A DNA stretch of 64,000 bases from contig CM120648.1 of assembly GCA_051362555.1 (NCBI GenBank), forward strand, positions 13,078,587-13,142,586. Reading direction: 5' to 3'. Source of the stretch: Lingula anatina. Lineage: Eukaryota > Animalia > Brachiopoda. Of this stretch, positions 5,771-63,828 are shown piece after piece. The first letter of the stretch is position 1. Every line of letters begins with the position of its first letter. The notes under the pieces are model-generated. The model was not told where the DNA came from and did not search any database. It was given only the letters and a program-made list of their open reading frames with translations. A program made the position numbers and the translations under genes.

Positions 5771-7092
5771 TGTGAAACCGGGGCCTGAAACCCCCTAAGA
5801 TTCACTGATTTATTCTAACTGAAGATTGTTTTTTAAAAGCTATTGCACTTACCGGCAGTTGTTAGTGCTAGGGCTAAAGGAAAACTTAATTGGGCAAGGC
5901 CAAGGGTAGATTATAGTCGTTACCGTTTATCAGAAAGGGATGAGGACCGTAATCCTTTTTACATCAGAGAGACATCACTGAAAACGCGCGTGTTAAAATA
6001 GTGTAGAGCTAGTGCAACATCTGAGGTATCTAAACATATTTTAATTAAAATTTTGACAACCCAGGTCATGAAACTGTTAAAAGGTGAATATATTGGACGA
6101 AGGACCAAGATTTCTTTGAAAGAGAAGTGAAGAGGGTTATTTGCATTATTTAAAGATTTACTGTTGATTTACTCTATAAAAACGTGATTTTTAGCCCTAT
6201 TTGGGTACAGTAACTTGCCCAGTGTATGGGACAGCCTGTTAGATTTTTTTGAAAGGGAGGGAAGGACTCGGTCCCTGGAACTTAAAATTCCTCTCCCTCC
6301 AGTGTCTACAGCGACATCTATTGGTAGTCCAGTAAACGAATCAAAAGTTATGTCGTGAATCAAAAATGTTTTGTTTCCTCGTTCTGAACAAGTCTCTAAA
6401 ATAGAAATAAACAACATTCTGACCGGTGAGTATAGCAATTGTTTATTTTCATTTCTATTTTAGAAAAGCACTATTCCAATTTATCAACGTTAGTTTTGGT
6501 CATTTGGTCATGATGATAGTATATTGAAATTACATTGTGTGTTTTTCATTTATGCTTAATTTGTTTTCTCTACAGAAAAAAAAATATTAAAGTATGTATG
6601 CAGCTTCCTTAATTAAAGCAGTACTATTCAACAAGTAACTTTCATGCCCTTTCCAAGATTTCTTCAAGAATGGCTTTCTAATAAGTGTCTCTGGTCAACA
6701 AGCTCTCCAGAAACTCATTCATAGGGCATCTGCAATAAAGTAACATACAATATCATAATGCAAATATGTAATAGAGCATAATAATATTTTGCAAAGGTGC
6801 TTATATATATATATATATAATTTTTTTTTTTGGGGGGGGGGGATAATTGATTATGAGTAAACATATTTTTTCCGTATGTACCTGGTATATACTCAGAACA
6901 AACCTGTACTGCCTTGTTTCTATTTTTTTCCTTTTGTTTTCTTGCGTCATTTAACAAGCACACTTAAAGACAGACAACGTGCGTTAGAGCATATAGGGAT
7001 AGATTTGAAGCAAAATATTAATCGAATTTGTGTCCCAGGATATTGTTTTTGATTGTAGATACTGTACTTATTCCCGTTGAAACTGGACTGTT

Positions 7093-10000
7093 TTAGCCTA
7101 CCGAATAAATAATTAGGAAACGGACGCCATGTATCTGTATTTCGATGATCAACGGAATTCTCTCACGCTTTCAACCAATCGCAATATTTCAGAGATAAAG
7201 TAACATGAATAGCGCGAGTCTCAAATAAGAAAGTCTTAATTAAAAACGTTTTAGAACTCCCAGCAGTTTAGAATAGGAGATACTTCGGCCATTATGGGAA
7301 ATGTGATGAAATTTACAAGAAAATTAATTTTTGGCTAAATAAAGGTCTAACGCGCTTTGTTTGTCTTTAATTTACTTATATAATCAGTAATTCGTGACAT
7401 GGTTAGACCGACGACCATTTACACCTTACCACAATCCGGCGAATATATAGTTAAACATCTGATAATATTCGGGGTTTCCACAGCCCGTTTGGCTTTGTTC
7501 AGGGTAGACTTCTCTGCAAGTGGTCCTCTGACATAGAAAGGAAATAATCGTTTTAATTTATAACTTAGCTTTACCTATATTATGGCGACCTTTGAGCATC
7601 CCTTGTGCACTGTTGCCACTTGTATTACTAGTATAAGTATATAGATGTTTGTCCATTTGTATGTAATAAAACAAATGCACACCAATGGATTTGTGAAGCA
7701 ACTGCATGAAAATGACAATGTTTATTTCTGCATTATCTAAGAAGATCAGGAAAAATATCTTAACGTATCTATCCCCCTTAGGACGCCACCTTTTCCATTA
7801 TCGGTTAATAACATTATTTTATATTATTGTGCATGTATATTTAACATTACAGATCGTTCATTATTTTGTTTCTAATCCTCTTTATCATTTTATTATTTGG
7901 TTTGATAAGTTACCAATTTTCAACCCCTTTTGATATTTATTTTAATTACAGTACTTTTTGGATTGATATATTACCTTGGAGAGGTAGGGTTGTCTGATGA
8001 GCTATCAATCAAATTATTGTAAATGCTAAATTAGCTTAACTGCTTCGATTTCAACTCACATAATATGGATTTTACTATGTAAAGGTTGAGTTAAAACTGT
8101 TACATGTATATTGCTGGCTTTGCAATTTCTATGTGGATTTAGGTTAACTTAACATTCTAAATGACTCACCGAAAGGTGTTAAGAGTGTGTAGTCATGCGG
8201 TCTCGATATTCTTCATGGGGATTCAGAATTTCACCGAGTATTGTACAACTTAGACCTTATCAAAATTAGGCAAAGACAGACAACCAAGAATTTACCTTTC
8301 CGTCCTCTGGTTGTCAACCGCACGTTTGATGACCTTCATTAGGGTACCCTCGGCAATACCTGGACGTCCTCTGAGGAAGAAAGCAAAAGAATTGTATGAA
8401 TTTACGACTAATATGACACCAGTTACTTCCGCCTAACGGACAACCAGCAGAGCATTGCATGGCCGCCTTCTGAATTGATGCTTGTAGCTTTTTAAACATT
8501 AAAAAATTTAAGCAAAATTTATTCAGAAGAACGAAAAGAAGCAAATTGTTTCTAGCTTTATATGCTCTTCTTAAGATAACAAAAATATATATTTTTATAT
8601 GAGTCGTATATACAAAAAATTAATAAAGATAAAAAGACAATTTAAAAATGAATAGAAACATCCATAACCAAATGGACATAATGCTTATAAACAACTAACT
8701 AGATAGATGAATGAATGAAGAAAGAACATCGATTGTACTATTTACACTCGAAATAAACCATTTTTCAAAATTGAATTTAAAAAATGATACCCTTCAAGTA
8801 CTTTCAACGTTGTTAAGTAGGAATGAACAAATATAATTTCATTATGTCCAACAGTGACAGAAACTGGGTTAAAATTCAAATTCGTTGGTCGAAATGTTTT
8901 GGGAGTGCGGAAGTATGTCGACGTCAACATTCTCTTGACGGATAAAGAAAAAATAATAAAGAATTGAAAAGAAAATGAAAGCAACAATTTTAGTGTGCCC
9001 CTGGATTCTCTTTGAATTACCTCATACCTTCACAATTGAAGCATTTGTCTATACAGTGTGAGCACTTATCCTATAAACACAGTGTATACATATATACTTT
9101 ACAATGTATTTATATTAGACGCTTGATCAATATTCAATATTTGTCTCACAAACACATAATTATATAACACAGAAAATTACAGAGCTTGCAAAAATGTATG
9201 CATGTACCATTTAAAAAATATTATTATCATTATTAATGTTTTTATTATTAACTGCCTATTTTGAGTGATCACAACAGCTGAAACGGGGCTTAAATGTCCT
9301 GAACGCAGTGACGTGACGCAGTTGTCGCCACCTGTGTGTTAAATGGGGCGAGCCCACATTCAGAACAACATACAGGTAGTTGTTAGTACATCCAGTACAT
9401 ACATAAAGGTTGGATGAGGGCGAACATTAAAAGCCTTAAAAGATGGAAAGACTGAACTGATAGGATTTACATCAAGATTTAAGATAAATAGGGGAAATAC
9501 AACGAAATCTAGTATTTTTACACTATATCTTTTTACGTGAAAGATCTGGGTGTCACTTTTGATAAATATGGAACTTTGGATAGACAGTCTCTGGAATGTC
9601 CAAGTCAGCATCATATTCACTCTGGCGATTTAGAAAGAAAAAAAAAGAAATGAGAAATGAAAAAAAAAGATATGTTTAGTACATTCTTTTATTACTTGTA
9701 AACTGGATTACTGAAATAGTCTCCTACATAGTTTAAGCAACCATTATTTGAACAAACTGCAATTATTTCAAAATTCTGTAACCAGGCTGCTAACAAAAAT
9801 GGGAATGAACAGTCGAGAACATGTAACACCTGTATCGACGTAACATTATTGAAAGAAAATTTTATTTAAAGTTCTATGTTACAAGGCAGTTACAAAAACA
9901 ACCCACTCTATATCTAATTTAGCCAAATCAGCAGGGACGGATTACTAGGTCTTCAACTTTTAGCCGCTTACTCTTAGAATGTACTGTTTTAGAGAAAAAA

Positions 10001-11335
10001 GCCTGGTAAATTTTTCGGAAAAATGGCCTCACAACTCTGGAACGGTTTACCGGCTCAAATAAAAGCAGCAGGTGACACAGGTTTTTTTTAAAGACACTTT
10101 TCAAGACTTACTATTTATTATTATTAATTATCGAGCAATTTTTAAACTTACGATCCTAGTATTCATAATTGACATATTTAACTCTTTAACTTAGATTTTA
10201 GATTAGTAATGAGCTATATATCTGTAGTATTATAACAAAGTTTGAACTGCTATTTTAGCTCTCAACTTTATCATTTTAAATCTTCATTGTAATGTTTGCC
10301 CTTTTATATTGTTTTAAATTGTAATACTTAGCTTTTTCATATATTACTACTTTAAACAGCTACTTTAAACAATTGTAAGGTGCATTGAGATTATAATGAA
10401 ATATGCGCCATATAAGAAGCAATTGGTATTTTTTATTATTATTATGGCTGTCAAATAAACTGATGCTCGGCACCATGTGAATCGTAAACCTTTTTTATTA
10501 AGTTAGTGTAATGGGTGAAATGTTTCATACCAGTGACAATCCTGTGGTGACGACTTGTAGTGGTCGTCCAAAGAAAACAGCAAGATATAAACCATGTAGT
10601 TTATTACTAAAGCTTAAATTCTAGTTTTCTGTTTAGATTACAGAGTTGATAAAATTTTGAATCTAATACATTTCATTTTCATTATAATTCATTTAAATCT
10701 ATTAGGGAATGTCTCACATTGTCCAATGTTCAAGCATTAATAATGCTATAGTGTTGTTTAATGTCACTAAATGTCTTCTTACCTACAATACTGTATATGT
10801 AGATAAGCATATGTCAAAGTTGCTCTGTATAATTGTTAAATCATAGCCTTTGAAAAGTGCTTATATAAAAATATCGTAATACAAGTGTTGTAGAAATAAC
10901 TTACTCTGCCCGATTGCCGACAGGCAGTTCGTCCGTGAGCCCCCACCTGTAAAAAAATATTCCAGATAAAGCTCACAGAAACTATACTGCTCAGTATGAA
11001 TTGCAGATACCAGAAGCGCGAATAGGGAAACCCAAAGGTGTTTCTCTCTACCGGAGGCCCTTCTAGCTGTCACAAATTTGGTTGGTGGATTTCGGCCCAT
11101 TTTTTGTCAGCTAGCTATATAAGACCCCTGGTATACAGTAAGGTCAGCTAGCTATAGGTAGACGAATAAAACAGCTTTACCAGTTACAAATCCGAAATTT
11201 GACTAAATAACCAATCGAATTAACATAAAAGCGGTATGTTTAAAGTGCATGTAATAACAGATAGAATAATTTTCTATAGACCTACCAAGCCTCAACAAAA
11301 GTAAGAATCATCATCAGCAACAGCGCGGTCTTCAT
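7093..11335 (-). CDS. Secreted peptide precursor A, 89 aa, 5 coding exons (signal peptide, KR sites, amidated two-Cys peptide)
   Basis: Exons 11335-11286, 10946-10905, 8370-8296, 7527-7430, 7097-7093. All introns are GT-AG with compatible phases (2,2,2,1); 270 nt, no internal stop. Translation: MKTALLLMMILTFVEA-WWGLTDELPVGNRAEGRPGIAEGTLMKVIKR-AVDNQRTERGPLAEKSTLNKAKR-AVETPNIIRCLTIYSPDCG*. Paralog B has the same exon structure. Confidence 0.82.
9360..10443 (+). mobile_element. 5'-truncated L2/CR1-clade LINE fragment in intron 2 of gene A
   Basis: Degenerate RT C-terminal motifs KTELIGF, VKDLGVTFD, LDY.NSLLH and EHVTPV; 3' end gcgccatataag followed by (tta)n. Also present in unit 2, so it predates the duplication. 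Confidence 0.8.
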
Positions 11336-11445
11336 TATTGTGCTATATCGCATAATGTATACGTATAATGTTATTTCTAAGGCGCAGTAAGGTGTATCTG
11401 TTTGTCAGGACAGCCCTGACCTGCAACCAGGCCAAGTTATTCAGA

Positions 11446-11456
11446 TACGTCACCAC
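11446..11456 (-). promoter_or_regulatory. CRE/ATF-like element GTGGTGACGTA upstream of gene A
   Basis: About 110 nt upstream of the A start codon. The identical 11-mer lies about 130 nt upstream of gene C (24695-24705), and TGACGTAA lies about 67 nt upstream of gene D (738-745). Confidence 0.45.
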
Positions 11457-11580
11457 TTATTCAACAGAAACATTCGGAAAAATTTTGCGATTTAGGTACG
11501 ACTTATTGATAATTTACCTACATACATCTTTGACTTAAGTACCTGCAGAAAGGGGAAAAGTGAGAATTGTTGCATTATCC

Positions 11581-12926
11581 CGGTGTAACAGTAATCCAAG
11601 TCCCCCAGGAACCGAGGTCCTACATGGGAATGGTATTCCCACTGGGACTTACACCCCATTTCCATAGATTAGATCAACCTACTTTGGAACGACCTAACTC
11701 CATGGGGGTTCGCGCTGAATAGCTGTCAGCCGGGCGGACACGAAAGTTAATTGCCCCTTACGGCTTGTAGTGGGCGGGGACGGACACTTAAGGGGGATTA
11801 TCTGACGGTAGTCTGGTGAGACTCCCCGCGGTGATAGATCGATCTAAAGCTGTGGGAATAGACCCTTAGGTTCCTGGCTCATAATTATAGTAGGTAGAGC
11901 TTGTATTACTGGCGGACTTTTATTCCTGTTACATTATAACAGTAATGGGCGTCCGGCCATTTGAAAGTCCTACCCCTATGCAATAATACGGTTAAATGAT
12001 ACAATTACAAATGTATATGAAAATCATTCTGGTGAGCCATATATAAGACAGAAAATGAAGGGTTTGCAACTTCAGCTCGTCGGTGTAGGGGTTAACGTGC
12101 CCTGTGACATCCTTAGGTTCGAGACCTACCTTTGACGTGACCTTGCTCCCCTCCCCCTCCATCCCCCACCTTGCTTTAGCTACTGATGTTTTTAATGTAT
12201 AATATTCTAAATTCTGTGATTATTAAACTTACTACTAGTTTTTTTGTTTTGTTTTTTAACTCAAAGCGCCAACATAGCAAAGGAATATAACAGAATATTA
12301 TATATAATTTCAAATTCTACACTGTCTTGATTTGCCTTATATCCAAGAGCAAATTTCCATTGGATTTAGGGTTATTTTTCAATTTCTGTTAGTGTAAACC
12401 GAAAAATTAATCTAAGAACAGAGATCCCGTGTTTTGTGTAAAGTGATATTCCCCTCATTTGAAAGCCTAAGTAGGTCAATGGCTCATACAAAACTATGCG
12501 TATACTACAAGAAAAATACACAAAATAAAATTAATGAAGGAAAACTATGGGAACCGTGTTGCTTTTGTTACTTCATTAATATGTATGTAAACTGCCTATC
12601 GGAACATAAAAACATCGTAAAGTATTAAAATAAAATGAAATAAAGCAAACCTTTATTATATCTTTAAATCTAGCATATCTCTATATCTATTTATTCATGT
12701 CATGCCTCGGTGTAAACTATATAGGACATGCATTACTAAAATGTTAGGAACGCACGTCCCATTAGGACGTGCATTACTTGGAAGCCCTCGTCCTACGGAC
12801 ATTGAATCCTAGTAACGTATGTCCTAGGACCTCCATTCCTAGCAATGCATGCCCTAGGACTTGCATTCCCAGGACTTAGTGTCCGGGCGGACTTGCGTTA
12901 CTAGGACGTGCATTCCTGCCACCCCG
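11581..12926. mobile_element. Non-autonomous DNA transposon with TIRs, internal short tandem repeats and a nested MITE
   Basis: Left end cggtgtaacagtaatccaagtcc matches the reverse complement of the right end (cggggtggcaggaatgcacgtcc). Degenerate taggac.tgcatt.c repeats at 12720-12915. Absent from the equivalent site in unit 2 (about 22540). Superfamily not assigned. Confidence 0.7.
11655..11868. mobile_element. MITE of about 210 bp, copy 2 (nested)
   Basis: Same sequence family and orientation as 4121-4333. Confidence 0.75.
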
Positions 12927-13317
12927 GGGTCCTTTATTTTAGAAACCAGGGGTCTTTGAAATACCAGGTCCCAGACTCGGATACACGGTAAGTTTGCATA
13001 GGGTTTTAACGATTATTAATTACTTTAGGCAAGTCCAAGTAACTACTGATGTCCACATTTGTTAACATTCAATATTAACATGCACAGCAAGATCAATTCT
13101 GTAGATTTCCCTACAGCCCCTCAAACAAAAATCAGCACAAACGCTTTTTCTCCGATTTATTTTGTTAAAATGACTTCATGCAGTTTTGTTCTGAACGAGG
13201 CTCTTGAAATATAATTTGACAACAACAATCTGGAGTGTGTGTTGCATAATTGTATATTTTATTTTATTTATTTTCTTTTCCAATTTGGAAAATACTAATA
13301 AACAGAATTAACAATGT

Positions 13318-13366
<49 letters not shown>

Positions 13367-13682
13367 AAACAATATCGTTGAGAAGTTTATAACGATATTT
13401 AATTCCATATACACCTTATCAAACATAAAAGTGAGAAAAGAATGTAGTGCAAAGGTGAAAGATTCTGGTTTTCTCTACATAAACAATAGCACTACAAACA
13501 ATGAGCATGATATCGTTATGGTAGAAATATCATGAAAAATGTAAAAAGAATATTATGACAAAGCTGCATTTACTATTACTATTGCACGAAATGCCTACGG
13601 TGACAAGTGCTTCAGGCTTGTAGATTCTTCATTTTATAACTATTTGAATATATCTGAGCAGAGTTTAAAATACGTTTATTAC

Positions 13683-13969
13683 CAAACCCTATTGCCGATA
13701 GGCAAATATTCCTTCTCGCTGTCACTATCCATTATGTCACAATGGTTCTCGTTTCTCTTCAGCTTTCGAGCACTGGCACTTTCAAATTTCTCTCTACCGT
13801 CTGTACTGTCATCAGTTTCCCTGTATATCGGTTTGCCCCAGCTACCACGTGGATTTTCTCTCAGATACACTTTCTGGTCTTCTGATTTTTTTCTTTTGCT
13901 CGGTTCGCTTTCGCTATGTTAAGTGCTCACATCCGTAAGACTTATGACAGGCAGCGCCGGTGACTGCAT
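13683..13969 (-). pseudogene. Decayed exon related to precursor exon 2
   Basis: The frame ends ...RKLKR...KEYLPIGNRV-W at a phase-2 donor (cf. exon 2 ELPVGNRA-E at a phase-2 donor). It has an in-frame TAA. The duplicate at about 23285-23553 is frameshifted and has lost the donor. Confidence 0.45.
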
Positions 13970-13976
13970 CGTTCAG

Positions 13977-14111
13977 GGCTCCGTTACTCGAAAGCATAGC
14001 GAATTGCGAATAGCGATACCACCTTTTATTTCGAGGCTATTATATGGAGACAGCAAATCCCGAGACGCTTGCGCTCTGTCGCAATTCGCGATGCTTTCGA
14101 GTTACGGAGCC
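13977..14111. mobile_element. 135-bp PIF/Harbinger (Tourist)-type MITE
   Basis: TIRs of about 33 bp (ggctccgttactcgaaagcat... / ...atgctttcgagttacggagcc) with a 3-bp TSD CAG. The empty site is visible in unit 2 at about 23560. Confidence 0.85.
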
Positions 14112-15569
14112 CAGGTGTCTGCGTATCACTTGATACCACAATAGCTCCACCCATTCCATAGCAACTAGGGCGGAGTCAACTGGCAGTATTTATTGCGGTT
14201 ACCAATGGGATAAATGCAAACATTAAAATCTTATAATTTCGAGGAAATTTTTATTGTTTTTAGTCAGCAGAAGTGTAAACAGAAAATTAGACAATAATAT
14301 ACATAAAAAACTCTTTTTATGCACTCTGATGATAATAAAGGGATACAATATCCTTAAGCCCGTTTCATTCATGATAAAGACTATGTTTGACCATTTCTGA
14401 TCTGAAATTGAAGATTACCGCCGTTACATGCTCAGTTGTGCATGTCACTGTACTTGTAACATTTTCTGTATTTCCACACAAACAATAGTAATAGTATTTG
14501 TGCTGTAAAGTATTATCCAATATTATTTTATGCACTAAAATTATTATTCACATGTATGTATTTTCAGTGTGTGAATTTGAACTCTCATGGACCTGACGTT
14601 ATATTGCTATTGTCTATGCCATCTCTTAGGTATGTGTTGATCATTTTGCTCTTAAGCATTTTTTGTTATTGTTTAAAATTGACAAAAAAGAGCATTTAGT
14701 GCATCCTTATTTTCTGCCTTTGCTCTGTGCATTTGAAAGCTTTGCTGCCTTGTTTTAATATTTAGATGCACGATGCTCCGAAGGAGTTGATAATTTATTG
14801 CATTACAAAATGCCTGTTATGTCTCATTTGTAGATGAATAAAAAGACTAAAAATACACATTTGCTATTTGTGTTTGACAGGTTATTAGATAGATGTCATG
14901 CACAGCCCGTTTTATTCGTCCAAGGTAAGCAAAAACATACCTTGGGCGAGCTATTATGCGCATGTTAATGTTCTAGTCTTTCTTTTCCTTTTGCAACTGA
15001 CTTACGTGTGGTATATAAATTTTTTTCTTTTGTTATCTTAAGGAGAGCATAATATGATATATACTATTTGCCCCCTTACAAATTAAGGCCCGAAGCTAGC
15101 AATTTCAAAAGGGGGTTCTTTTACCATGAAATCGTCATGTATCTCGATAAAATTTTACCCAGAGGGTACCTTTTCCCGGCAAAAGGGGTGATTCTTTCGA
15201 ACCCTACACCCCCCCCCCTCTCACGGGTCTGAAATGTTATTTGAAGTTACCAAGTTTTTTGTGTTCTTTAACTTTTGCCTTACTTACTATTAACCTCCTT
15301 ATCTTTTTCTTAATAAAAAAAGCCGTCGTAACAAATTCACGATATTTTTCCGAGTGGCTTTAAATATATACAAGCTAGATCGTCTAGCAGTTTCAGCACC
15401 TGCTTAATAAGCGGTGACATGCAGGCAACTATAGGACTCAGCCTGATAAGCTGCCTACTGATTGTGTAAGGACTATATAAGCTGTGTAAGGGCTATATAA
15501 GCACTAGCTTAGCCACTTACATTGTCACTGCAGCTTGGATATAGCATCGTCTTAAAATACAACACGAAG

Positions 15570-15817
15570 ATTAACACCACACGCGTGCTGCTTCTGGTAG
15601 TTACGGTTCTTGAGGCCTAGTAGGTCTCCGCATCTCTCCTAAGTCACAATTACATGTAGTTCTTTTAAATGGTTAATCAGTCTTTAGGTTTATAGAAATA
15701 AAGATTTTCTAACCGTCTCCCTTCACCATATTCGGGTCTCTTAAAACTTTCGAAAAATTTTCACCTATGTTTTGTCTTAACAGGTGGGGGCTCGGTGAGG
15801 CACTGCAAGAAGGCGGA
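15570..15817 (+). pseudogene. Pseudogene copy of peptide precursor C (exons 1-2 only)
   Basis: Aligns to 24835-25115 but has ATG>ATT, the split Trp codon TG|G changed to TA|G (stop), and the exon-2 donor GT>AT. No exon 3 was found before the duplication breakpoint. Confidence 0.8.
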
Positions 15818-17626
15818 TAAGTTGAAAACAAAATTTATTTGTTCCAAGGATTTTAAAGATAATGACCTAGCTCACGATTATATATTACAATCATGACATA
15901 ATATACATAATATTCATATACATGTAATATACAGGTATACTAGTAGTTTTTAGTATTCAAGAATATTAGCTGTTGATTCAAGAAAGGACTACTTATTCTT
16001 ATACAAGAATCATAACCAACACAGCTGATGAAATTCTTTTCTAGCTCATTAATGTCTGTATGACAGCCCCGAGAACCAAAAGTAGTTCAAACACAGCTGT
16101 GTTGGTTATGACTCTGGTCCATGTTATCTACTTTTTTACGTAAACCAAGAATGATTTTGTTTCCACGTTTGAACGAGTCTCTTAAGTCAAAAATTAACAA
16201 CAAACTTACCTCTGAGCATTGCAATTGTTAATTTTAAATTTTATTAAGAAAAAATACCACTTCAATTCTATTCATAGAATTTTATAAACGTTAGTTTTGA
16301 TCATGATGAGGGTATTTTCAATTTGCGTTGTGTATATCTGTGGTCTCCGTCCGTCTTTTTTTTTTCATAATTGTCAAAATATTCACAGAAATACATAGAA
16401 AAAACTTAAAGGTTTATCGTCAGACCGTCAGAATGACCTACATGGAGCACATTCTTCAGAAAACATGCCCAACTAATGTTATCATAATACACAAATTAGA
16501 AGGTAATTTTGTAAATTTTGAGCTTCGAAAAACCTCAATTTTAGCTAGGTCTGGGAGTTAATGAGCAACGTGATCACGTGGTCCGGTGACGACATACAAG
16601 CTACCGGAGGAGAGAGCCAGCTTGTTATGTAAACTGTCAACTGAGCTACCATTATCTACTTGAAAGATGACTTTTCAAACTACTGAGAACGATTTGTACC
16701 CATTCACCTGTCTTACTTGAGGAGTTTATATCCTGGTGAACCAGGTGCCTGTCTATTCAATTATTTAACTAGCATTTAATTACGATTATCCCAACTAGTA
16801 TAAAATAGTGCATTCGAATGACTTGAGGGAATTTTGATCATTCAATATGAGATTCATATTATTTGTGAAATTTTTTAATTAAAATTCAATTCAATTCAAT
16901 TTATGAAACGCTTGAGCCCTACAGCTCATCAGAATGAAATGCAGTAAAAATATAAAGTCATAACAACAACAATTCAACTACTACTACAACTACTAATAGT
17001 AATAATAAAAAAACTCATCAGATTTACGTTAATCATAACTTCGATGAGCATTTTAAGTTCTTTTCTAAGTTGTTTAATTGTGAAACATTGTTAAGTGATA
17101 ACGACTTAATAAGCTTGAAAACACTTTGCTTTGTTTTACAAAATTTTTGATGTATTCCTGCCCAATCACTCTGTAGCAATGACACTTAAGAACAAAATAA
17201 GTAATGATTTTTAAACATGCTGCTAATAGCAACAATGCTTTTTCCTTGTTCTGCTATATGTTTTTGGGTTTGACATTACTTTTGAATTTGCGAAAAGTTA
17301 TGCGTACGCACGCAGAACTTGGGTTTCAAATTATAAAATTATAAATCTTACTAACAAATACGTCAAAATACATGAATATGCACTTTCTTGAATAACAAGC
17401 ATTGCTAATCAACAAGAAATGTTTATGGATGCTCTATCCAAGATTTCTTCCAGAATTGCTCCCTAATTTGCCTCTGGTCAATGGTCCTATGCTTGTCAGG
17501 AACTCATTCACACGGCACCTGCAATAAAATAAGGTACGAACTTTAACCGAATATATATCATAATAAACTTATTGTGCATTTAGGTGCATTTATTGTATTT
17601 TTTATTATTATTTGGATAAGTATATA

Positions 17627-17790
17627 CTGGACGAGCGACCTAGAAAAACTAGACAAAAAAACAGTCCAGGCCGAGTTAAGGAGATGGGTTTGACCCGGGG
17701 CAAGATAGGTAAGGTAGCGAAAGACCGCGAAGAATGGCGTCACCGTGTCGCGACCCTAGTTCCCAACAGGGAAGAGGGGATACGTAAGTA
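17627..17790 (+). mobile_element. RTE-clade LINE 3' fragment
   Basis: Encodes GRATx..VQAELRRW/EMGLTRGKIGKVAKDREEWRHRVATL across frames, resembling RTE ORF C-termini. Absent from unit 1. Confidence 0.65.
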
Positions 17791-18099
17791 ATATACTAGG
17801 TGAACAAAAAAAGCCAATAATAAATCGAAAAATGGTCATAATTATCTTACTCAAACCAATTATGAGTAAACGGCTTTTTCCATATGTACCGTGAAGATAC
17901 TGAGAACAAACCTGTGCCGTCATACCTCTATCTACTTCACTTTTGCTATCTTGTGTTATTAAACAAGCACATATAAAGACAAACAACGTGCGTTAGACCA
18001 TTGTACAGGGATAGTTTTGAAGGAAAGTGTTAATCACATTTGTATTGTGTGATCTTATTTTTGATTATCCATTCTCACACCCATTGAAACTAGACTGTT

Positions 18100-21000
18100 T
18101 TAACCTACTGAAATTAGAATAAAAATTAGGAAACGAACACCATGTATCTGCATTTAGAAGGTCAACTGAGGTACATGATGTAGAGTTATCTCACGCTTTC
18201 GACAAATCACAATGTTCAAGAGATAAAGTAACATGGATAGCAACTTAAGGTCACAAGAAAGCCTCAAATAAATACGTTAAAAACGGTTTCTCAAGGATTT
18301 TGGATAGGTTATGCCTTGGCGATTACTGGAAATGTGATGAACGTATCAGTATTTTATTTATTTATTTATTTATTTATTTATTTTATTTTATTTATTTTTT
18401 TTTGCTAAATGAAGGTCTAAATGAAGGTCACTTTGTTTGTCTTTAATTTTAAGACCTTAAACGACATTTAAGATACGCAATGTCTATCTTATCAAAGTTT
18501 ATCTTATCAGTTTATCTTATCGACCGACGACCGCTTACACCTTACCACAACTCGGCGGACACCTTCCTAAAATTCGTTGAAAATTCTGGGTTTCCAGAGC
18601 ACGTTTGGATTTCTTCAGGGAAGATCTCTCTGCAAGTGGTACTCTGAGAGGAAAGAAATAATCTTGAGTTTTAACTTAACATTGGACCGTCTTGTGCCAA
18701 CACTTGTGTTATTAATGCTTACATAAGTATGTGCATGTATTTAAAATAGGATTGTTGAATCAACGCCACAAAATTACAGAACATGACAACTTTGTCTAAA
18801 GAAATAAGGATACATATCCTAACGTATACATGCATAACCCTCAAGACGCTTTTCTTTTGGGGCGGTAGGGTTAGGTGATTGCATGATCGGTAACATTTTC
18901 ATATCTTTGTTATATATAATATAATATAATAATGTTATTTTAAATCTTTTTCAGAACACTCCATGATTAGCTATTTACAGAATTATTGCCAATTTAGCTT
19001 AACTGTATTGATTTGAATTTATATAATTTGGATTGTACTATGTAAAGTTTGACTTAAAATTCATACATGTATATTGCATATTGTAGGCTTTGCAATTTCT
19101 TTGTGGATCTGTGTTAAACTTTACATTCTGAATGACTGATCGAAATGCATTAAGTACGTCTTCATGTGGTTGTCGATTATCTTTATGGGGATACAGAATT
19201 TCACCGAGTATTGTACAACTTCCATCCATCCATGTGTGTCCTCTCTTCTGAGGTTGACGTGAAATGGCCTCTTTCATTGCACTCTTCCATTGATTTACTT
19301 GTCCAACTTTTGATGTCATCCATCCATGTTAGTTTTTGTCTCCCTCTCCTATGTGTTCCTTGGACCTTCCCCATCTGCTTGCCGATGGTTTCATGCCTGG
19401 CTACGTGAACAAAGTATTGCAGTTTCCTGCACTGTATACAACTTAGACCTTGTAATGTAAGGCAAAAACAGAACACCAAGAATTTACCTTTCCATCATCT
19501 GGTTGTCAACCGCACGTCTGAAGACCTTCATGATGATATCCTTGGTAATATCTGGACGTACTCTGAGGAAGAAAGCAAAAGAATTGTTTGAATTTACGAA
19601 TGTGACACCAGTTACGACCGTCCAACGGACAACCAGCAGAGCATTACAGCGTTGGTCAGAATGTATTGGGAGTACGGAAGTATGTCGAAGTCAACATTCT
19701 ATTGGTGGATAAAGAAAAAGAGGGAGAACGTGCAAGCAAAAAATAATGATAAAGAATTAAAAAGAAAATTTATGCCACAATTTTAGTGTGCCCCTGGGTT
19801 CTCTTTGAATTACCCCCTCTTGGCCGCCGTTTAAATCTATAGCTTGTACCTTGTTTCTTACTCTCATTATATTTAAAAATAAGATTCTTTAATCTAATGT
19901 CACATCTGTCGAGTCAATACGGTAACGCACCCACCCATTACAAGCTATATTTAAGAAAGGCACTGTATACATATATACATATACATGTAGAATGTATATA
20001 ATAAACAGATGCCTTCACAACTGAAGCACTTAACCTATAAACACACTGTTTATATATACTTTACAATGTATTTATGTAAGACGTTAGATCTATAGTCAAT
20101 ATTTGTCTCACAAATACATAATCAAATAACACAAAAAATTACAGAGCTTGCAAAGATGCAAGCATGTACCAAGCATGTTTAAAAGATGAGATCATTATTA
20201 CTGTTCTTATTATTAACTGCCTTTTTGAGTGATCACAACAACTGAAACGAGGCTTAAGTGTTCTGAACGCAGAGACGTGACGCAGTTGTCCCCACCTGTG
20301 TGTTCAATGGGGCGAGCCCACATCCAGAACAACATGCAGGTCGGTTGAGGACGAACATGTTAGCCTTAAAAGATGGCAAAACTGAACTGATAGGGTTTAC
20401 ATCAAGGTTTAAGATAAACAGCAAAATCTAGTGTTTTTACACCATATCTTTTTACGTGGAAGATCTGGATGTCACTTTTGACACATATGGAACTTAAGAT
20501 AGACGGGTATCTGGAATTTGCAAATCAGCATAATATTCATCTGGCAATTAAGAAAGATGCACAGCTTACTGGACAAAAAAACCATCTCAGATATTAGTAT
20601 ATTATTTCATTACATGTTAACTAGATTACTGCAATAGTCTCCTACATGGTTTAACCAACCATTATCTGAACAGACTGCACTTATTTCAAAATTCTGTAAC
20701 CAGGTTGCTAACAAAAACAGGAATGTACAGTCTAGAACATGTAACACCTGTATTGACGAAATATTATTGCCTTCTCATAAGACAGAGAGTTTTATTAAAA
20801 GTTCTATTTGTAATTTTTAAAGCAGTTACAAAAACAAACCACTCTATATCTAATTAAGCCAAATCAGCAGGGACGGATTACTAGGTCTTCAACTTTTAGC
20901 CGCTTACTCTTAGAATATATCGTTTAAGAGAAAAAAGCCTGATAACTTTTACAGAGAAATGGTCTTAACGCTAAACGTGTCCAAACTCTGGAACAGTTTA

Positions 21001-22274
21001 CCGGGTGAAATAAAAGCAGCGGATGACAGAGATTTTTTAAAGACATTCTTAAAGACTTACAATTTATCATTATTAATTATCAAGTAATTATTAAACTTTA
21101 AGATCCTAGTATTCATAATTGACAATATTTAACTCTTAAACTTAAATTTTAGATTATTAATAAGCTATATATCTGTAGTGTTATAACGAAGTTTAAACTG
21201 CTATTTTAGCTCTCAACTTTATCATTTCAAATCTTTATTGTAATGTTCATTTCAAATCTTTATTGTAATGTTTTGTTCCTTAAAATTGTTTTAAATTGTA
21301 ATACATATATTTTACATATATGTAGCTATTTAAAACTATTGCAATGTGCATTGAGATTTTAATGGAATATTCGCCATATAAGAACTAATCATTATTATTT
21401 TTATTATCAAATAAACTGATGCTCGGCACCATGTGAATCGTAAACCTTTTCATTAAGTTAGTGTAATGGTTGAAATATTCCATACCAGTGACAATCCTGT
21501 TGCGATGACTTGTAGTGGTCAAAGAAAACAGCAAGATATAAACCATGTACTTTATCATTGAAGCTTAAATTCAAGTTTTCTGTTTAGATTACAGAGTTGA
21601 TTAAATTTTTAATCTAATATATTTCATTTTCATTTTAAATCATTTTAAATTCGTCAGGGGACGTCTCACATTGTCCAATGTTCAAGCATTAATAACGCTA
21701 GTGTTGTTAAATGTCGATAAAGTCTCCCCACCTTCATTATAGATAAGCACATGTCAAAGTTGATCTGTATGATTGTTATATCATAGCCTTTGAAAAGCGC
21801 TTATATAAAAACATCGTAATACTAGTGTTGTAGAAATAACTTACCTTGCCCGACTGTTGGCAGGTAGTTCTTTCATGAGTCCCCTGTAAAGAAAAATATT
21901 CCGGATAAATCCCTCAGAATTTATACTGCGTAGTATGACTGCAGCTACCATTAAATGAGGAATAAGGAAACATGATGCTCGTGTACTCTCCACAAGAGGC
22001 CCTTCTAGCTGTCACAAATTTGGTTGATGGATTTCGGCCATTTTGTGTCAGCTAGCTATATAAGACCCCTTATATACAGTAAGGTCGGTTAGCTATAGGT
22101 AAACGAAGAAAACAGTTTTATCAGTTACAAATCCGAAATGACTAAATAGCCAATCGAATAAACATAAAAGCGGTATATTTAAAGTGCACGTAACTACGGA
22201 TAGAATAAATTTCTATAGACCTACCAAGCCTCAACAAAAGTTAGGATCATTAGCAGCAGAAGTGCGGTCTTCAT
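18100..22274 (-). CDS. Secreted peptide precursor B, 88 aa (89 with the alternative acceptor), 5 coding exons
   Basis: Exons 22274-22225, 21883-21845, 19562-19488, 18643-18546, 18104 (or 18107)-18100. All introns are GT-AG with phases 2,2,2,1. Translation: MKTALLLLMILTFVEA-WGLMKELPANSRARVRPDITKDIIMKVFRR-AVDNQMMERVPLAERSSLKKSKR-ALETQNFQRILGRCPPSC(V)G*. Confidence 0.82.
19222..19436 (-). mobile_element. 5'-truncated RTE LINE in intron 3 of gene B
   Basis: RKLQYFVHVARH..MGKVQGTHRRGRQKLTWMDDIKSWT matches the RTE C-terminus. It has an (ATGG)n tail and an 8-bp TSD tacaactt (19214-19221, 19437-19444). The empty site is in unit 1 at about 8245. Confidence 0.85.
20325..21405 (+). mobile_element. L2/CR1-clade LINE fragment in intron 2 of gene B
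   Basis: Duplicate of 9360-10443; motifs VEDLDVTFD, LDYCNSLLHGL and EHVTPVL. Confidence 0.8.
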
Positions 22275-24834
22275 TAACGTGCTATATCGCATAATGTATA
22301 CTTGTAATGTTATTTCTAAGGCGCAGTAAAGTGTATGCATAATGCAAGTCAGCCTCGAAAGCCCTGACGTCTAACCAGGCCAAGATATTCAGATACATCA
22401 CCACTTATTCAACACAACATTCGAAATATTTTTCCGAGTTAGGTACGACTTATTGATAATTTACCTACATAACTCTTTGACTAATAAGTGCCGGGTACCG
22501 GTACCTGTAAAACAGGAAAAAGTGAGAAATGTCCTATTATCCAGGGTCCCGATATTTCAGAAATCAGGGGTGCGTGAAATACCAAGTCCCGGACTCGGAT
22601 ACATGGTAAGTTTTGTATAATGTTTCAGACTTTAGGCAAGTACAAGTAACCACTGATGTCCACATTTATTAACATTCAATATTATCATGAACAACAAGAA
22701 GATTGTAGTTTTCCACCGCTTCAATAGCCCCACAAACCAAAATCAGCACAAACACGTTCTTGTCTGATTTATTTTGTTAAAATGATTTCGTGCAGTTTTG
22801 TTTTGTTTTGTTTAAAAACATAACTTGACAACAACAATCTGGAGTGTGTGAAGCGTTATTGTATATTTTGTTTTCTTCATTTTCTTTTCCATTTTGGAAA
22901 ATACTAATAAACAGAATTAACAATGTAAAATGAGAGAGAGATAGGGGGAGAGAGATGGAGAACAAACAATATTGTTGAGCAGTTTATAACGATATTTAAT
23001 TCCATATACACTTTATCAAACATTTAAATTAAAAAAAAAGAACGAGTGTGAAGCTGTAAGATTCTGGTTTTCTCTACATAAACAATAGCACTACAAACGA
23101 TGTGCATGATATCGTTATGGTGGAAATATCTTGAAAAAATATGAAAATAATATTATGACAAATCTGCATTTACTATTACTATTGCGCGAAATGCCTACGG
23201 TGACATGTGCTTCAGGCTTGTGGATTCTTCATTTCATAACTATTTGAATATATCTGAGCAGAGCTTAAAATGCGTTTATTCCTAAATCCTATTGCCGATA
23301 GGTAAATATTCCTCCTTTCTGTCAATGTTCATTATGTCAGAATGTTTCTCGTTTTTCTTCAGCTTTCGAGCACTGGCACTCTCAAACTTCCCTCTACCGT
23401 CTGTGCTGTCATCAGTTGGCCCAGCTACCACGTGGGTTTTTTCTTAGATACGTTTTCTGGTCTTCTGATTTTTTTTCGCTCGGTACGCTTTCGTCTCCCT
23501 ATGTTGACTGCTCACATCCGTAAGACTCATGACAGGCAGCGCCGGTGACTGCATTGTTTAGGTGTCTGCGTATCACGTGACACAACAGTAGCTCCACCCA
23601 TTCCATAGCAACTAGGGTGGAGTCAACCAACAGTATTCGCTGTGGTTAACAACTGAAAAAATGTAATATTTTCGAGGGAATTTTTATTGTTTTTAATAAG
23701 CAGAATTGTAAATAAAAAATAACAATAATATGCACGAAAAATTCTTTTTATTGACGATAATAAAGGGTTATAATATCCTTAAGACTATTTCCTTCATGCT
23801 TAAGACCATGTTAGAGCAAGTCTGATCTGAAAATGAAGATTAACACCATTCCAGAGTCACTTGTGAGTGCCATTAAAGACCTGAACTAGTAACATTTTAT
23901 GTATTTCCACACAAATAATAGTACTAGTGTTTGTGCTGTTTTAACTGAAAAGTATAATGCAATGTTATTTTATGCACTATAATCATTATTTACATTTTTG
24001 TATTTTCAGTGTGTGAATTTAAACTTTCATGGACCTAAATTTATATTCCATTTGTCCTTGTCACCAGTTACGTATGATTAAAATTTGTTGATCATTGTGG
24101 TCTTAAGCATTGTTTATTATTGTTTCAAAACTGACAAAAGGACCGTTTTGTGTATCTTTATTTTGTTTTAATATCTTTACTGCATGATGCTCCAATGGTC
24201 GTGATAGTTGTACCACGGTTGCTAATTTTTATCATATAACAAAATACCAGATACATATTTGTCCCGTTTGTAGATTAATGAAATACTGGAAATGCACATT
24301 TACTCTTTGTGTGTGACAGGTCATTAGTTAGATGACACGCACAGTCTATTTATTCGTCCAAGGTAAGCAAAACAAACTGGGCGAACTTATATGTGCAGTA
24401 AGATTGTAAATGCATTGTTTTTCTTTTCCTCTTGTAACTGACTTACACGTGATTTTTTTCTTTTTCTTTTGTTATCTTAAGGAAAGCATTTGCCTCCTTA
24501 CAAATGTAAATTGAAGTTACCAAACTTTTTGTCTTCTTTAAATTTTGCCTTACTATTTGCCTTCTTATCTTTTTCTTGAATTAACTTCGTATGGGAACTT
24601 AATAGAGAAAAGTCGAAGTAACCAATTCACGATATTTTTCCGAGTGACTAATTACAAGCTAGATCGTCTGGCAGTTTCAGCAACTGCTTACTACGTGGTG
24701 ACGTAACTATTGGGCTCGGCCTGATAAGCTGCGAAATAGGTGTGAGGGTTATGTAAGCTGGCGTCACTTACCCAGCTACTAATACATTGTAACTGCAGTT
24801 TGGATACAGCATTGTCTTACGATACAACACGAAG

Positions 24835-27800
24835 ATGAAGACCGCACTCGTACTGCTACTGGCATTTACGGTTGTTGAGGCTTGGTAGGTCTCTATGAAA
24901 TACTCATACCTGCATTTTTTATAAACACTTCTCTTCTACTTCTACGTTTAAGTTCTTTTAAATGGTTATTCAGTCTTTTCAGATTTATAGTGAGAAAGAT
25001 GTTCTAACCGTCTCCCTTATTTCACCATACTCGGGTGTCCTTAATCTTTCGAGAATTTTTCACCAATGTTTTCTGTTAACAGGTGGGGCCTGGACGAGAC
25101 ACTACAGGACGAAGAGTAAGTTGATAACAAAAAAAGAAAAAAGGATTTTAAAGGATTCTAAAGGTCCTAACCTTTCTAACGATTATATATTACAATCATG
25201 TAATATATTCTGAGGGTAAGAGGATCTATGGGTACAGTCGGTAATACATGTTTATTCTCGGTCATACGACTTGGTCTTCCCAGTAGTCTATGGGCCACTG
25301 TAGGCCCCATTCCCCTTAGTGATTTTCGTTCACTATGTTTTTCTGATAGCTTTTATTTCCTGCTTGTTTGCAATTAAACTGGTGGTGGGTGTGAGTGCTG
25401 CAGCTGTTGCTACCTGTATGGTAACGTCTGGCATTAAAAATTGAGATTTCTGAGGCCAAAAATCTTTGATATTTCAAATGCATTAAATAAATGGATTTCA
25501 AAATAAAGTATAGTTTAAAAGCTACGCTACACTTCACGATCCTCAAAAAATTCCAAGATGGCAGGCAAATTCAAGATGGAGGCCAATTTTAGCTGGTTTT
25601 TGAGTAGTTTAAATTATTTTTGATATTAGTGTGTTTTTTTTTTTTCAATTTTTAAGGAATCGGAATGTGAGATATGTTTTGACGTAACAGAATAGCAGAA
25701 AGTCTCTACTTTATATTTATAGTGTTTGTTTAAGGTGAAACCTTTTAAATTTGATGTAAAATCCTGAAATCTAAGATGGCTGCAACAAAATGTCTTTCAT
25801 TATGGCCGCCAATATGCTTTTGCACACTTGCTAAAATTGATGTATTATATTATTCCAACAAAATATTAATTTTAATTATCTCAAACTAACTTAGTCCAGT
25901 TAGTGATTTTTATTTACTATAATTTTCTGGGAGCTTAGGTTCTAAACATTTATTTTCTGCTTGTTTGCCATTAAACCCTCGGTTGAATTGAGTATCAGAG
26001 CTGTTGCCATGGTAATATCTGGGGTTGGAAATTTATTTTTTAGAGACAAAAATAATTAAACATTTCAAATGCATCAAAATTCATGGAATTCAAAATCATT
26101 CCAGATGTGTGGTTTTAGAAATGTTATATATCATTAAAATTTTCCAAGATGGCAGCAAGTGCAAGATGGTGACAAATTTTTGCTGATTTTGGAATGATTT
26201 TTTTTTAATATTTGTGTTTTGAATTAATTTCATAATTAATTATTTAAATGCAATGCGTCATATGTTTTGATGTATAATAGCGGCAAAAAGTCTCTGCTTT
26301 CTGCATAAAGTGCTTGTTTAAGGTTCAACCTTTTGATTTGTCGTAAAATCCTGGAATCCAAGATGGCTGCCACAAAACATGTCTTTAATAAACGGCTGTC
26401 CCAGCTGAAAAGATGCCACATTAATCATTCCAAATTACATCCTTTATTACTTTATCTTGCCATTTTCAATGAAATATGTTCATTAGGTTATGTATTTAAG
26501 ATTTGCTGCAACCTCTGAGACTTTGGGTTTTTAAAAATGTAAGATGGTCTTCATCTATATGACTAAATGGAATAAAACATTTACATGTATATGCAATAAT
26601 TCCTTTTCATACTGCTAGGGAAGTAAAATAATGTCCACATTTTGGAAAAATCAATATGTCCACTAACTACAATTCAATAAATAATTTAAATTAATTTATA
26701 TGATACTTTACATAAAATATAATTCTATAAAAATGCAAAATTACCATCAATATTTGCAAACCAGTTACCTTTCACTGAAAATCAGACTATTTTTTGCCCT
26801 TCAACTTGCCCAATAGGTGGAAGAGGGATCCAATAATTTCAACCATCTGTGATAATCTACCAGTAGATTTTGGTAGACCAGCTTGAGTTAGTACAAATGT
26901 TCAAGTTTTTGGCTTCATATTATTCATTACATGAAAAGATAATAATAATAGCAAAATAATTAAATAATAAATAAAGATTGAAAGAAGGCAGTTTTGGAGA
27001 AAAAAACGTAGTCTACAATATTTGAAGTTAGAACAGCAATGTGAACCAAAAAAATCACCAAGGATTTGTTGGGGCCATTTTGGATTTCAAGTTTTTTGTT
27101 CTTAAAATGATAATTATAGGAGTAACAATAACTACATGTATAAGCAGTAAGTAAAAACCAAATACCATATAAATATCAAAATACTTAACATTTTTCGATC
27201 CCAATGCTATTTTTTGAAAGTTTCAACATAAGCTACTAACAGTAGGAACAGGTTAAGAAATCAGCTAAAATCGGCCGCCATCTTGAAATTGCCGCCACCA
27301 TCTGAGATGATTAAAGAAAGTTTTTCCATCATAAATTACCACAAAAATAAATGTGTTAGTATTTCAAATAAGTTAACATTGTTATTGAAATTAATATGTT
27401 TAAAATGTTTGATGTTTTCTTTGTCTCAGAAATGTCAGTTTCTAAACCCAGTGTCACTATGGCAATGGTCACACCCACCACCAGTCTAATGGAGAACAAG
27501 CAGAAAATAAAATTTTAGGACGTAAGCTATATATAACAGTAAATGAAAGTTGCTAAATGGGGGTGGGTGGGTTGGATCAGCTTAATAAAATCGATCTAAG
27601 TAACGTTCTTTTGAAATATTCCATCAATTTAAGCCAGAGTGTATCATATATGATAGTATACAGAAGTATATTGACTCAAATGTATTCTTTTCCATATCAA
27701 CTGTGAGTGACTAGCATGTACATGAAACTTAAGGCGATTTCTTAGGTGAAATGTAAGTGACTTGCATTTATTATGGGTTTTATAAATGTGTCTTCAGTCA

Positions 27801-41100: not shown

Positions 41101-41638
41101 GTTCCGACAAGTTGATGATTTTTTCTGGTGTGTTAATGCCTGTGTGTACGTTTTGCCACACATCACCTTTGTTTGACAAAGGGTTTGCAATAAGTTCCTC
41201 GTCCGAATTTCCGGATACCACGAGTTTACTTGGACATTTACCCACCGTCGCTATATTTTCCTGCACTGGGTTCTGATATGAAGCTACCAGTAAATCAACA
41301 GTGATTTCTGACTGCTCACATCCTTGTGCGTTCTGTTGACCATCCACAGAACATATGTCCAATTTATTAGTGCAAAAGGCATAGTCTTCTTGTTTGAAGG
41401 TTGTTTCTTGGTTTAGGTTAGAGTTTGCTGATTCGGCAGGCTGCACTCCGTTCCGCAATTTGCTCTCTGAAAAGTCATGCCTACTAGTAACGCCCAGTTG
41501 TTTCAATAGTTCAGGTTTGCTTTCTGAATGTGAGTTATCTTCTGACCATATTTTATTATTGGGGATACATGTGTCTCTTGGATAATTGTTTCCCTTTGAT
41601 CCTTCGAAACGAAGCCTGTTGTTTCTCATGCATTCCAT
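35166..41638 (-). CDS. MAP kinase kinase kinase of the MAP3K8 (Tpl2/COT) / MAP3K14 (NIK) family, 904 aa, 11 coding exons
   Basis: Exons 41638-40276, 40163-40012, 39897-39586, 39086-38952, 38639-38510, 38118-37990, 37750-37661, 36381-36224, 35680-35551, 35361-35288, 35207-35166. All GT-AG and phase-compatible; 2715 nt. Kinase motifs: RGAYGEV, AVKK, alphaC Glu (FNRREPRIL), HRDLKPNN, DLG, YAAPE, DIWSLGC, LERDPNKR. The pre-kinase segment EGLVLFEGLRLDNGRY matches the extension shared by NIK (NEGVLL..KLKPVDYEY) and Tpl2 (ESGILL..PQNGRY). The last two small exons are less certain. Confidence 0.88.
38140..38190. repeat. (TAATA)n microsatellite in a kinase intron
   Basis: Direct inspection. Confidence 0.9.
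39323..39550. mobile_element. Tc1/mariner-type MITE, copy 1
   Basis: TA-flanked TIRs of about 28 bp, CAC(G/A)CACTGGACAATAGAAGTGTCACCCC. Confidence 0.88.
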
Positions 41639-45118: not shown

Positions 45119-45158
<40 letters not shown>

Positions 45159-60030: not shown

Positions 60031-60072
<42 letters not shown>

Positions 60073-63685: not shown

Positions 63686-63794
63686 GGGGATAACAACTGT
63701 TCATTTTGGCCAAAAAGGAATTTTTCTGGGGTAAACGGCAATATTCCCATACTTTATTTAATATTTAATGAATCCATTCAACATTCAGAATTAG

Positions 63795-63828
<34 letters not shown>

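Follow-up and report, generated by a model that had tools for sequence, protein, structure and literature searches.

Organisation of the gene cluster

A stretch of 64,000 nucleotides from the genome of the brachiopod Lingula anatina (assembly GCA_051362555.1, contig CM120648.1, positions 13,078,587 to 13,142,586), here called the window and numbered from its first letter, contains a pair of head-to-head genes that has been duplicated in tandem. Two genes within the duplication, A and B, represent a real family of peptide precursors, apparently undescribed, whose general kind is known. The family is distinguished by a repeated exon, by variability across the whole region after the signal peptide, and by a mobile cysteine. 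Self-comparison of the window places the two copies of the duplicated unit, which is about 9.5 kb long, at approximately 6354–15905 and 16139–25207 (overall span 6354–25207). Genes A and B lie on the minus strand and have four coding exons each, with open frames of 91 and 90 residues respectively. All six introns are GT-AG and all are in phase 2. Gene C, on the plus strand and encoding 79 residues, stands head-to-head with B, and a relative of it, C-prime, stands head-to-head with A. A and B are intact genes, recently duplicated, and together with C and the decayed C-prime they make up a small birth-and-death cluster. The possibility that A and B are uncollapsed haplotypes was ruled out, since their non-coding divergence is 12–20%, compared with the heterozygosity of 1.6% given for L. 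anatina in PMC4595640.

In gene A, coding exon 1 (11335–11286, minus strand) starts with an ATG and encodes a predicted signal peptide of 16 residues plus two further bases. It has a hydrophobic core (Kyte-Doolittle 9-mer 2.9) and the donor GTAGGT. Signal peptides were assigned by hydropathy, and the cleavage site was inferred. Exon 2 (10946–10905, 42 nt, phase 2-2) is bounded by GT-AG sites. Exon 3 (8370–8296, 75 nt, phase 2-2) is a copy of what we call the module exon, with an amphipathic stretch, a KR site and an acidic AVDNQ spacer. Exon 4 (7527–7419) is a diverged copy of the same module (nhmmer E 8e-14 to a module profile that includes this exon), with a KR site, the C-terminal peptide AVETPNIIRCLTIYSPDCGKV and the stop. 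Gene B, also on the minus strand, is organised in the same way: exon 1 with the predicted signal peptide (22274–22225), exon 2 (21883–21845, 39 nt, phase 2-2), module exon 3 with an RR site (19562–19488, 75 nt), and exon 4 with a KR site, the C-terminal peptide ALETQNFQRILGRCPPSCGKV and the stop (18643–18535).

Gene C has a related signal peptide, in which 5–6 of the 16 residues differ from A and B (exon 1, 24835–24884, plus strand), an acidic exon 2 of 33 nt (25083–25115), and two module copies (exon 3, 28407–28481; exon 4, 33623–33704), the second of which carries a CxxC pair and is followed by an AATAAA at 33751. The stop in exon 4 falls at the site of the splice donor in the other module copies, giving a 79-residue product with no disulfide tail. 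The length of exon 2 is a multiple of three throughout (42, 39 and 33 nt in A, B and C). C-prime (15570–15816, plus strand) is a decayed copy of exons 1 and 2 of gene C that has lost the start codon and the exon-2 donor; its downstream exons were not found in the window.

Some further features lie within these genes. Directly upstream of gene C exon 3, an AG behind a pyrimidine-rich stretch would add 34 in-frame codons containing a C-x5-C pair (102 bases, 28305–28406, plus strand); the corresponding DNA of A and B carries a frameshift. This stretch is possibly an alternative acceptor or a decayed exon. In A as in B, intron 2 contains a decayed reverse-transcriptase fragment, which from a motif in an open reading frame we take to be of L2/CR1 type (approximately 9480–10100 and 20400–21050, plus strand), and which was inserted before the duplication. 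Intron 2 of gene C is filled by nested inverted-repeat, MITE-like elements (25283–28115).

Reading frame and transcription

RNA reads from raw-read runs of the same species were mapped to gene B alone. In run X4, with 9.5 million records, 13 reads fell on B and covered 7 of the 30 bins, of which five hold the four exons (22172–22305 for exon 1, 21770–21903 for exon 2, two bins spanning 19358–19625 for exon 3, and 18554–18687 for exon 4) and two lie in intron 2. Over the exon bins all first mates are on the plus strand, which in most stranded libraries corresponds to minus-strand RNA. At 18621, 18625 and 19522 the reads differ from B (4 of 4 reads each), and all three differences are shared with A. 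Neighbouring differences specific to A (18626, 19518 and all seven in exon 1) are absent from those listed for X4. Since the transcript shares some bases with A and not the neighbouring ones, it appears to come from a third variant (an allele, orthologue or paralogue), closer to B. RNA of a related variant thus covers all four exon positions of B. Coverage of exon 4 amounts to about 39 bases per read and falls to zero in the bin that holds the stop and the 3' untranslated region. This is consistent with a variant tail too different to align, although the reads may simply end there.

The frame of exon 4 deserves comment. A second CAG, 14 bases past the acceptor at 7527 (A) and 18643 (B), also yields an open frame in both genes. 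The upstream acceptor lies behind a pyrimidine tract and resembles the exon-3 acceptor, whereas the downstream CAG has no such tract. The frame given by the sequence-only reading is also the sole frame open across all six copies of the module exon in the window. Two other candidates were rejected. An alternative frame of exon 3 would require either GAG as its acceptor or one more exon, and is broken in gene C by an early stop; an extra exon in intron 2 was discarded because the intron reads fall at or beside the decayed LINE-like piece.

The module exon

Each module exon is symmetric (phase 2-2) and encodes, in order, a variable peptide, an amphipathic stretch, a dibasic site and an acidic spacer. 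All six copies in the window have KR or RR followed by Ala-Val or Ala-Leu. The acidic spacer is relatively constant, with two of nine residues changed between A and B. Comparison with the module profile identifies exon 4 of A and B as a diverged copy that bears the cysteine tail. We suggest that the precursor lengthens through duplication of this symmetric phase-2 exon, each copy of which would bring with it a variable peptide, a dibasic site and the conserved acidic spacer.

Searches for relatives

Relatives were sought in sequence, structure and literature collections. The homologue queries were single exons of 24–40 residues, which have limited power, so that what follows is weak evidence of absence. 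A search for homologous proteins, using the family alignment, retained none of 804 candidates of 71–2000 residues and none of 10 candidates of 13–70 residues at E<=10. A profile search of 1.84 billion representatives gave a single match (E 6e-4), over 11 positions of an unrelated 389-residue repeat protein. Pfam returned no family for any of the six peptide-exon queries; the best matches in the PDB (E 0.56 and 0.019) were to unrelated chains; and the top scores in the Atlas (0.89) were to bacterial hypothetical proteins and below threshold. A metagenome scan with a 20-base module motif found six loci with matches of at most 31 bases, which were taken as chance; the one that was inspected had no splice context.

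No description of such a brachiopod peptide family was found in the literature searched, from which subscription journals were mostly absent. In the searched supplement of a survey of brachiopod neuropeptides (PMC8557429, 161 Lingula entries) the motifs RAVDN, RALETQ and VEAWWG do not occur. MKTAL, CGKV and KRAVET occur there 11 times, and the five occurrences among the matches listed are all unrelated. The part of supplement file 2 of PMC6425005 that was searched holds no Lingula entries, and the precursors could be in the remainder of files 2 and 3. A supposed likeness of the acidic spacer to the propeptides of fish pleurocidins was not confirmed in the literature search, and PMC13121700 offered nothing of relevance.

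Substitution pattern between A and B

The sequence-only reading had reported, from a count by hand, that the signal peptide is conserved and the C-terminal peptide hypervariable. The recount agrees exactly: there are five synonymous differences and one non-synonymous difference in the 16 signal codons, and ten replacements and one synonymous difference in the 18 codons past the last KR. The two ratios differ (Fisher P=0.0054, uncorrected and with the region picked after looking). The C-terminal peptide keeps its length of 21 residues, the KR that precedes it, its last cysteine and its glycine, as had been noted. The window of 18 codons omits three invariant codons (GKV), and over the whole C-terminal peptide 10 of 21 residues are changed. 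The first cysteine moves from position 10 in A to position 14 in B, which shortens the loop from seven residues to three. Both tails nevertheless hold exactly two cysteines (a random second cysteine was regained in just 18% of simulations, which speaks weakly for selection).

The idea that hypervariability is peculiar to the C-terminal peptide is not supported. In the 53 codons between the signal and the C-terminal peptide there are 22 replacements and three synonymous differences, a ratio that does not differ from that of the C-terminal peptide (Fisher P=1.0), and the proportions of residues changed, 10/21 in the tail and 22/53 in the pro-region, are similar (P=0.80). The contrast is between the signal and all else in the precursor.

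Selection was assessed with a pairwise codon model fitted by maximum likelihood (kappa 2.2, three base-frequency settings). For the signal, omega is 0.05–0.06 (P 0.001–0.002). The earlier interpretation is partly upheld, namely as regards real coding genes, a signal peptide under purifying selection and a post-signal region richer in replacements than expected. The DNA of the signal is not itself conserved: 7 of its 48 bases differ, which is level with the non-coding baseline (P=0.33). In the pro-region, omega over 53 codons is 2.0 (P 0.16), and for all 74 post-signal codons it is 2.3–2.4 (P 0.041–0.048, uncorrected and from two sequences). With the non-coding distance fixed at 0.13, exons 2 and 3 give omega 2.0–2.1 (P 0.004–0.008); with it fixed at 0.23, the 21 C-terminal codons give 2.0–2.2 (P 0.014–0.023). 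The value of dN climbs from the first exon to the last (0.04, 0.24 and 0.42–0.51). The net result is an acceleration of the post-signal region to about twice the rate of nearby non-coding DNA, which suggests diversifying selection and falls short of proving it.

The local neutral baseline

Mosaic duplication and clustered mutation can both exaggerate the contrast that two paralogues show between signal and mature peptide, and the neutral baseline must therefore be local. Non-coding divergence in the duplication is indeed a mosaic (heterogeneity P=3e-9; 5' block against 3' block P=2e-8): it lies at 0.116–0.128 as far as the end of intron 2, counting from the 5' flank, rises to 0.162 in intron 3 and reaches 0.200 in the 3' flank. 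Against a baseline of 0.118 the tail appears greatly accelerated (18/54, P=3e-5). Since the non-coding divergence around exon 4 is higher (0.19–0.20 rather than 0.12), the excess shrinks to about twofold. The comparison with intron divergence that had been proposed as a check needs care, since that divergence is a mosaic. Against its local baseline the tail gives P 0.009–0.015 (18/54) or P 0.045–0.067 (18/63), and exon 4 taken whole does not stand above it.

The N-terminal piece lies in the block of low divergence, where 21 of its 90 bases differ (P=0.0016 against 0.118). It exceeds its own local baseline at least as clearly as the C-terminal peptide (18/63) exceeds its own. Exons 2 and 3 together have 18 replacements in 68 sites (P=0.0007 against 0.118).

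A 7-base inverted repeat flanks the hypervariable core of A (7430–7480, minus strand), and the core of B contains a 7-base direct repeat. Repeats of this kind could mark mutation by template switching or slippage.

Interpretation

We tentatively favour, with somewhat less than even confidence, the reading that A and B encode precursors of about 90 residues which are secreted, cut by convertases at two KR or RR sites and processed to peptides used in defence, with selection favouring change after the signal. The 16-residue signal, predicted by hydropathy, would direct export, and proprotein convertases would then cleave the precursor at its two dibasic sites. The products would be an N-terminal peptide of 28–29 residues, a middle peptide of 21 residues, in which a further cut is possible at an arginine encoded on the exon junction, and a C-terminal peptide of 21 residues closed by one disulfide. 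Amidation at the kept glycine is unlikely, because Gly-Lys is followed by Val and the stop, which is not a standard amidation signal. Selection would keep the signals for export and processing and vary the sequence, charge and loop size of what is released, as would happen in an arms race against microbes, fouling organisms or predators. Since conserved export and processing go together here with variable peptides and with births and deaths of genes in one cluster, an effector in conflict with other organisms fits best. A function in predation, one of those listed in the sequence-only reading, is unlikely for a filter feeder.

Several observations weigh against this reading. For the 21 C-terminal codons omega is 4.6–6.6, which is not significant (P 0.08–0.11), and the C-terminal peptide is present in two sequences only. 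All P values given here are uncorrected, and the regions were chosen after looking. Much of the contrast is driven by an excess of synonymous change in the signal (P=0.013); the deficit of replacements there, relative to the baseline, reaches just P=0.07–0.11. The local divergence near exon 4 (0.19–0.20) is an underestimate, as alignment was possible for just 277 of the 768 bases of intron 3 and 823 of the 1119 bases of the flank. Over the whole of exon 4, 25 of 105 bases differ, giving P 0.14–0.20 against the local baseline, and a count of 18 mismatches is reached in 2.9% of the windows of 54 columns along the 3' flank. Of the 25 differences in exon 4, 14 are crowded into a 27-base stretch at the cysteine loop (P=0.004 by permutation), and an alignment with four gaps lowers the mismatches from 25 to 20. 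Because the differences are clustered and a gapped alignment is cheaper, one complex mutation could have inflated dN. The cluster is explained either by focused selection on the loop or by one complex mutation.

Much of this would also be expected if the genes were real secreted precursors drifting under relaxed constraint after duplication, the excess having arisen from small numbers, the mosaic and one clustered mutation. The 5' part of the duplication would then probably have been homogenised more recently by gene conversion, in keeping with the difference between the non-coding blocks (0.12 and 0.19). Decayed and truncated relatives in the same cluster also point this way, and the chance that the frame would still be open after 55 random changes is 0.20. 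Against drift, exons 2 and 3 exceed the baseline even though they lie in the block of low divergence, and the internal test gives omega of about 2.3 for the post-signal region, where relaxed selection predicts a value near 1. On balance we consider drift rather unlikely.

In favour of a defensive role, the net charge past the signal shifts from 0 in C to +4 in A and +10 in B, and the tail of B has an amphipathic stretch (moment 0.71). The remaining difficulties with such a role concern the peptides and their expression. The net charge of the N-terminal piece is −1 in A, +3 in B and −3 in C, and that of the C-terminal 21-residue peptide 0 in A and +2 in B. Most predicted pieces are not cationic: those of A and C range from −3 to +1 and so lack the positive charge typical of antimicrobial peptides. 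No kappa-B-like site lies near the genes (one match in the window, far away, where 2.7 are expected). Expression on B is very low: beyond the 13 reads of run X4, there were none in X1, none in X7 and one in X9. As no splice joints were listed, the splicing of B is judged from coverage.

Cleavage is uncertain, since the strongest amphipathic stretch (moment 0.74–0.86) spans the KR site and so does the helix, at residues 3–24, in the AlphaFold prediction for exon 4 of B (pLDDT 67, a low confidence). The precursor could accordingly be a single small amphipathic helical protein, uncut at KR and acting in mucus or shell or binding to membranes, or else exon 4 could be read in another frame, for which the second CAG, open in both genes, and the lack of a directly seen splice joint would speak. 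We give this very little credence. KR or RR followed by Ala-Val or Ala-Leu is a typical convertase context and is kept in six of six copies, just one frame is open in all six, and the upstream acceptor is the one with the pyrimidine tract and the match to exon 3.

Diversifying selection might alternatively act on a reproductive signal, such as gamete-recognition, sperm-attracting or spawning peptides of a broadcast spawner. This would suit peptides that are not uniformly cationic, and the finding of more than one read in just one of four RNA runs suggests restriction to a tissue or stage. The same substitution pattern is established for gamete-recognition proteins, and echinoderm sperm-activating peptides come from multi-module precursors with short disulfide peptides. 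Those precursors contain many near-identical repeats, a pattern not seen in A and B, and nothing in the sequence points to gametes; a reproductive role therefore seems improbable to us.

If the favoured reading holds, it matters because a family of secreted peptides that evolves fast shows where an animal is in conflict with microbes, predators or other gametes, because annotation by homology overlooks such families, and because brachiopod peptide effectors are barely studied. A stronger version would make these the first arms-race peptide effectors of brachiopods: a self-contained symmetric exon copied within and between genes, several peptides all under diversifying selection, a disulfide loop of varying size and an expressed tail that cannot be aligned between individuals or lineages, forming a new chemical class of host-defence or gamete-recognition peptides of which no description was found in the phylum. 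We regard this stronger version as possible but doubtful. The observed variability lends modest support to positive selection. Each copy would yield three or four short peptides that can be synthesised, so that function is directly testable.

Neighbouring genes and elements

The rest of the window holds a kinase gene (36100–41731, minus strand), which from our own reading of its motifs we take to be MAP3K8-like. It has a long N-terminal exon with a Tubulin C-terminal-like domain (PF03953, E 1e-9). It is 88% identical over 398 residues to L. anatina XP_013385035.1, with no other match among 250 candidates; taken by itself, this match makes a lingulid brachiopod the likely host, either of a divergent lineage or with a paralogous kinase. 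The RefSeq protein of Lingula that shares this fusion of kinase and tubulin domains forms a one-member cluster, and this is apparently an odd, lineage-specific domain combination. A small element with terminal inverted repeats occurs twice, once within the kinase gene and once upstream of it (39313–39550 and 41991–42243), the two copies being oppositely oriented.

Further along, positions 44187–47625 contain three diverged copies of a unit of 0.4–0.7 kb, some with a TATA-like box and with no long open reading frame. Positions 53208–64000 hold broken open reading frames with a PHD finger and transposase-like segments (53777–58447) between 300-base inverted repeats (53208–53505 and 63687–64000), and are probably a decayed DNA transposon. 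At the other end of the window, 2008–2640 contains remnants of a transposase, presumably Tc1/mariner-like from the appearance of its open reading frames.

Comparison with known systems

The sequence-only reading had likened the pattern to that of conotoxins. The host of A and B is likely a filter feeder without a venom gland. There is a resemblance in that conotoxin exons correspond roughly to the signal, pro and mature parts, and in that dN rises from the first exon to the last (PMC3862624). The likeness fails on two features. In the conotoxins of Table 5 of that paper the signal exon is kept at synonymous sites too (Ds 0.00–0.13 alongside low dN; PMC3862624), whereas the A/B signal has dN of 0.04 but dS of 0.56–0.71. 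Conotoxins also have a fixed cysteine framework, unlike the first cysteine of A and B, at position 10 in one and 14 in the other, and they show no homology to A and B.

Ranid frog skin peptides share with A and B a conserved signal, a KR site, an amphipathic stretch and a C-terminal single disulfide, which fits the tail of B. The frog precursors differ in having a strongly acidic spacer and one cationic peptide with a fixed loop. The A tail has a net charge of 0 and a different loop, and Pfam gave no match.

Elevenin, SSRP-like peptides and allatostatin-C (ASTC) are likewise short single-disulfide peptides from signal-bearing precursors, but they are conserved rather than hypervariable. A and B could in principle encode a lineage-specific neuropeptide or hormone precursor diverging after duplication, for instance a strongly diverged relative of elevenin, of a somatostatin-like peptide or of allatostatin-C. 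The combination of a signal, dibasic sites and a C-terminal single-disulfide peptide would suit this; the C-G-K-V that closes the A tail stands in the place of the C-R-G-V of elevenins, and CRE-like TGACGT elements were seen upstream of A, B and C. However, elevenin in the PMC8557429 supplement has an 8-residue loop directly behind the signal, and PMC9048919 gives SSRP-like peptides a WK motif, a loop of four and phase 0 or 1 introns, and allatostatin-C a loop of six and a phase 0 intron. A and B have loops of seven and three at the C-terminus, no WK and phase 2 introns. Furthermore, receptor-bound peptides are usually more conserved than spacers, and the reverse is true here. The earlier remark that the pattern is unlike conserved neuropeptides is borne out as far as the known neuropeptide lists go, which gave no match. 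A neuropeptide precursor is in our view quite improbable.

The closest parallels in working are two families of mussels. Myticalins and modiocalins are a lineage-restricted multigene family found by genome mining alone, with a conserved signal, a variable peptide directly behind it, a KR site and a more conserved acidic piece (PMC5577615). They differ in being strongly cationic and Pro/Arg-rich and in having one KR; a single exon encodes both their signal and their mature peptide, and their intron is in phase 1 (PMC5577615). The N-terminal pieces of A, B and C have charges of −1, +3 and −3 and their introns are all in phase 2; two dibasic sites, repetition of a phase-2 exon, a tail with a disulfide and a mostly low charge also set the family apart, and no sequence similarity to myticalins was found.

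In the MgCRP-I and CRP-I precursors of Mytilus a signal, a pro-region and a KR site precede a hypervariable C-terminal peptide with cysteines, which the last exon encodes after a phase 2 intron; some forms are modular and contain several peptides, and positive selection is reported for MgCRP-I (PMC4558851). Synthetic MgCRP-I peptides had no antimicrobial or toxic activity (PMC4558851). An invariant array of six cysteines (C-C-CC-C-C) marks the family, and its pro-region is conserved (PMC4558851), whereas A and B have two cysteines, the first of them not fixed, and a pro-region no less variable than the tail, with differences at 22 of 53 residues. Births and deaths within one cluster, together with the lack of relatives outside it, are as described for both mussel families (PMC5577615, PMC4558851). 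The A/B family resembles myticalins and MgCRP-I in its working and is a member of neither. A signal under purifying selection and a tandem multigene cluster, taxonomically restricted as far as the single-exon queries of limited power show, are features that it shares with rapidly evolving families of secreted peptide precursors in general.

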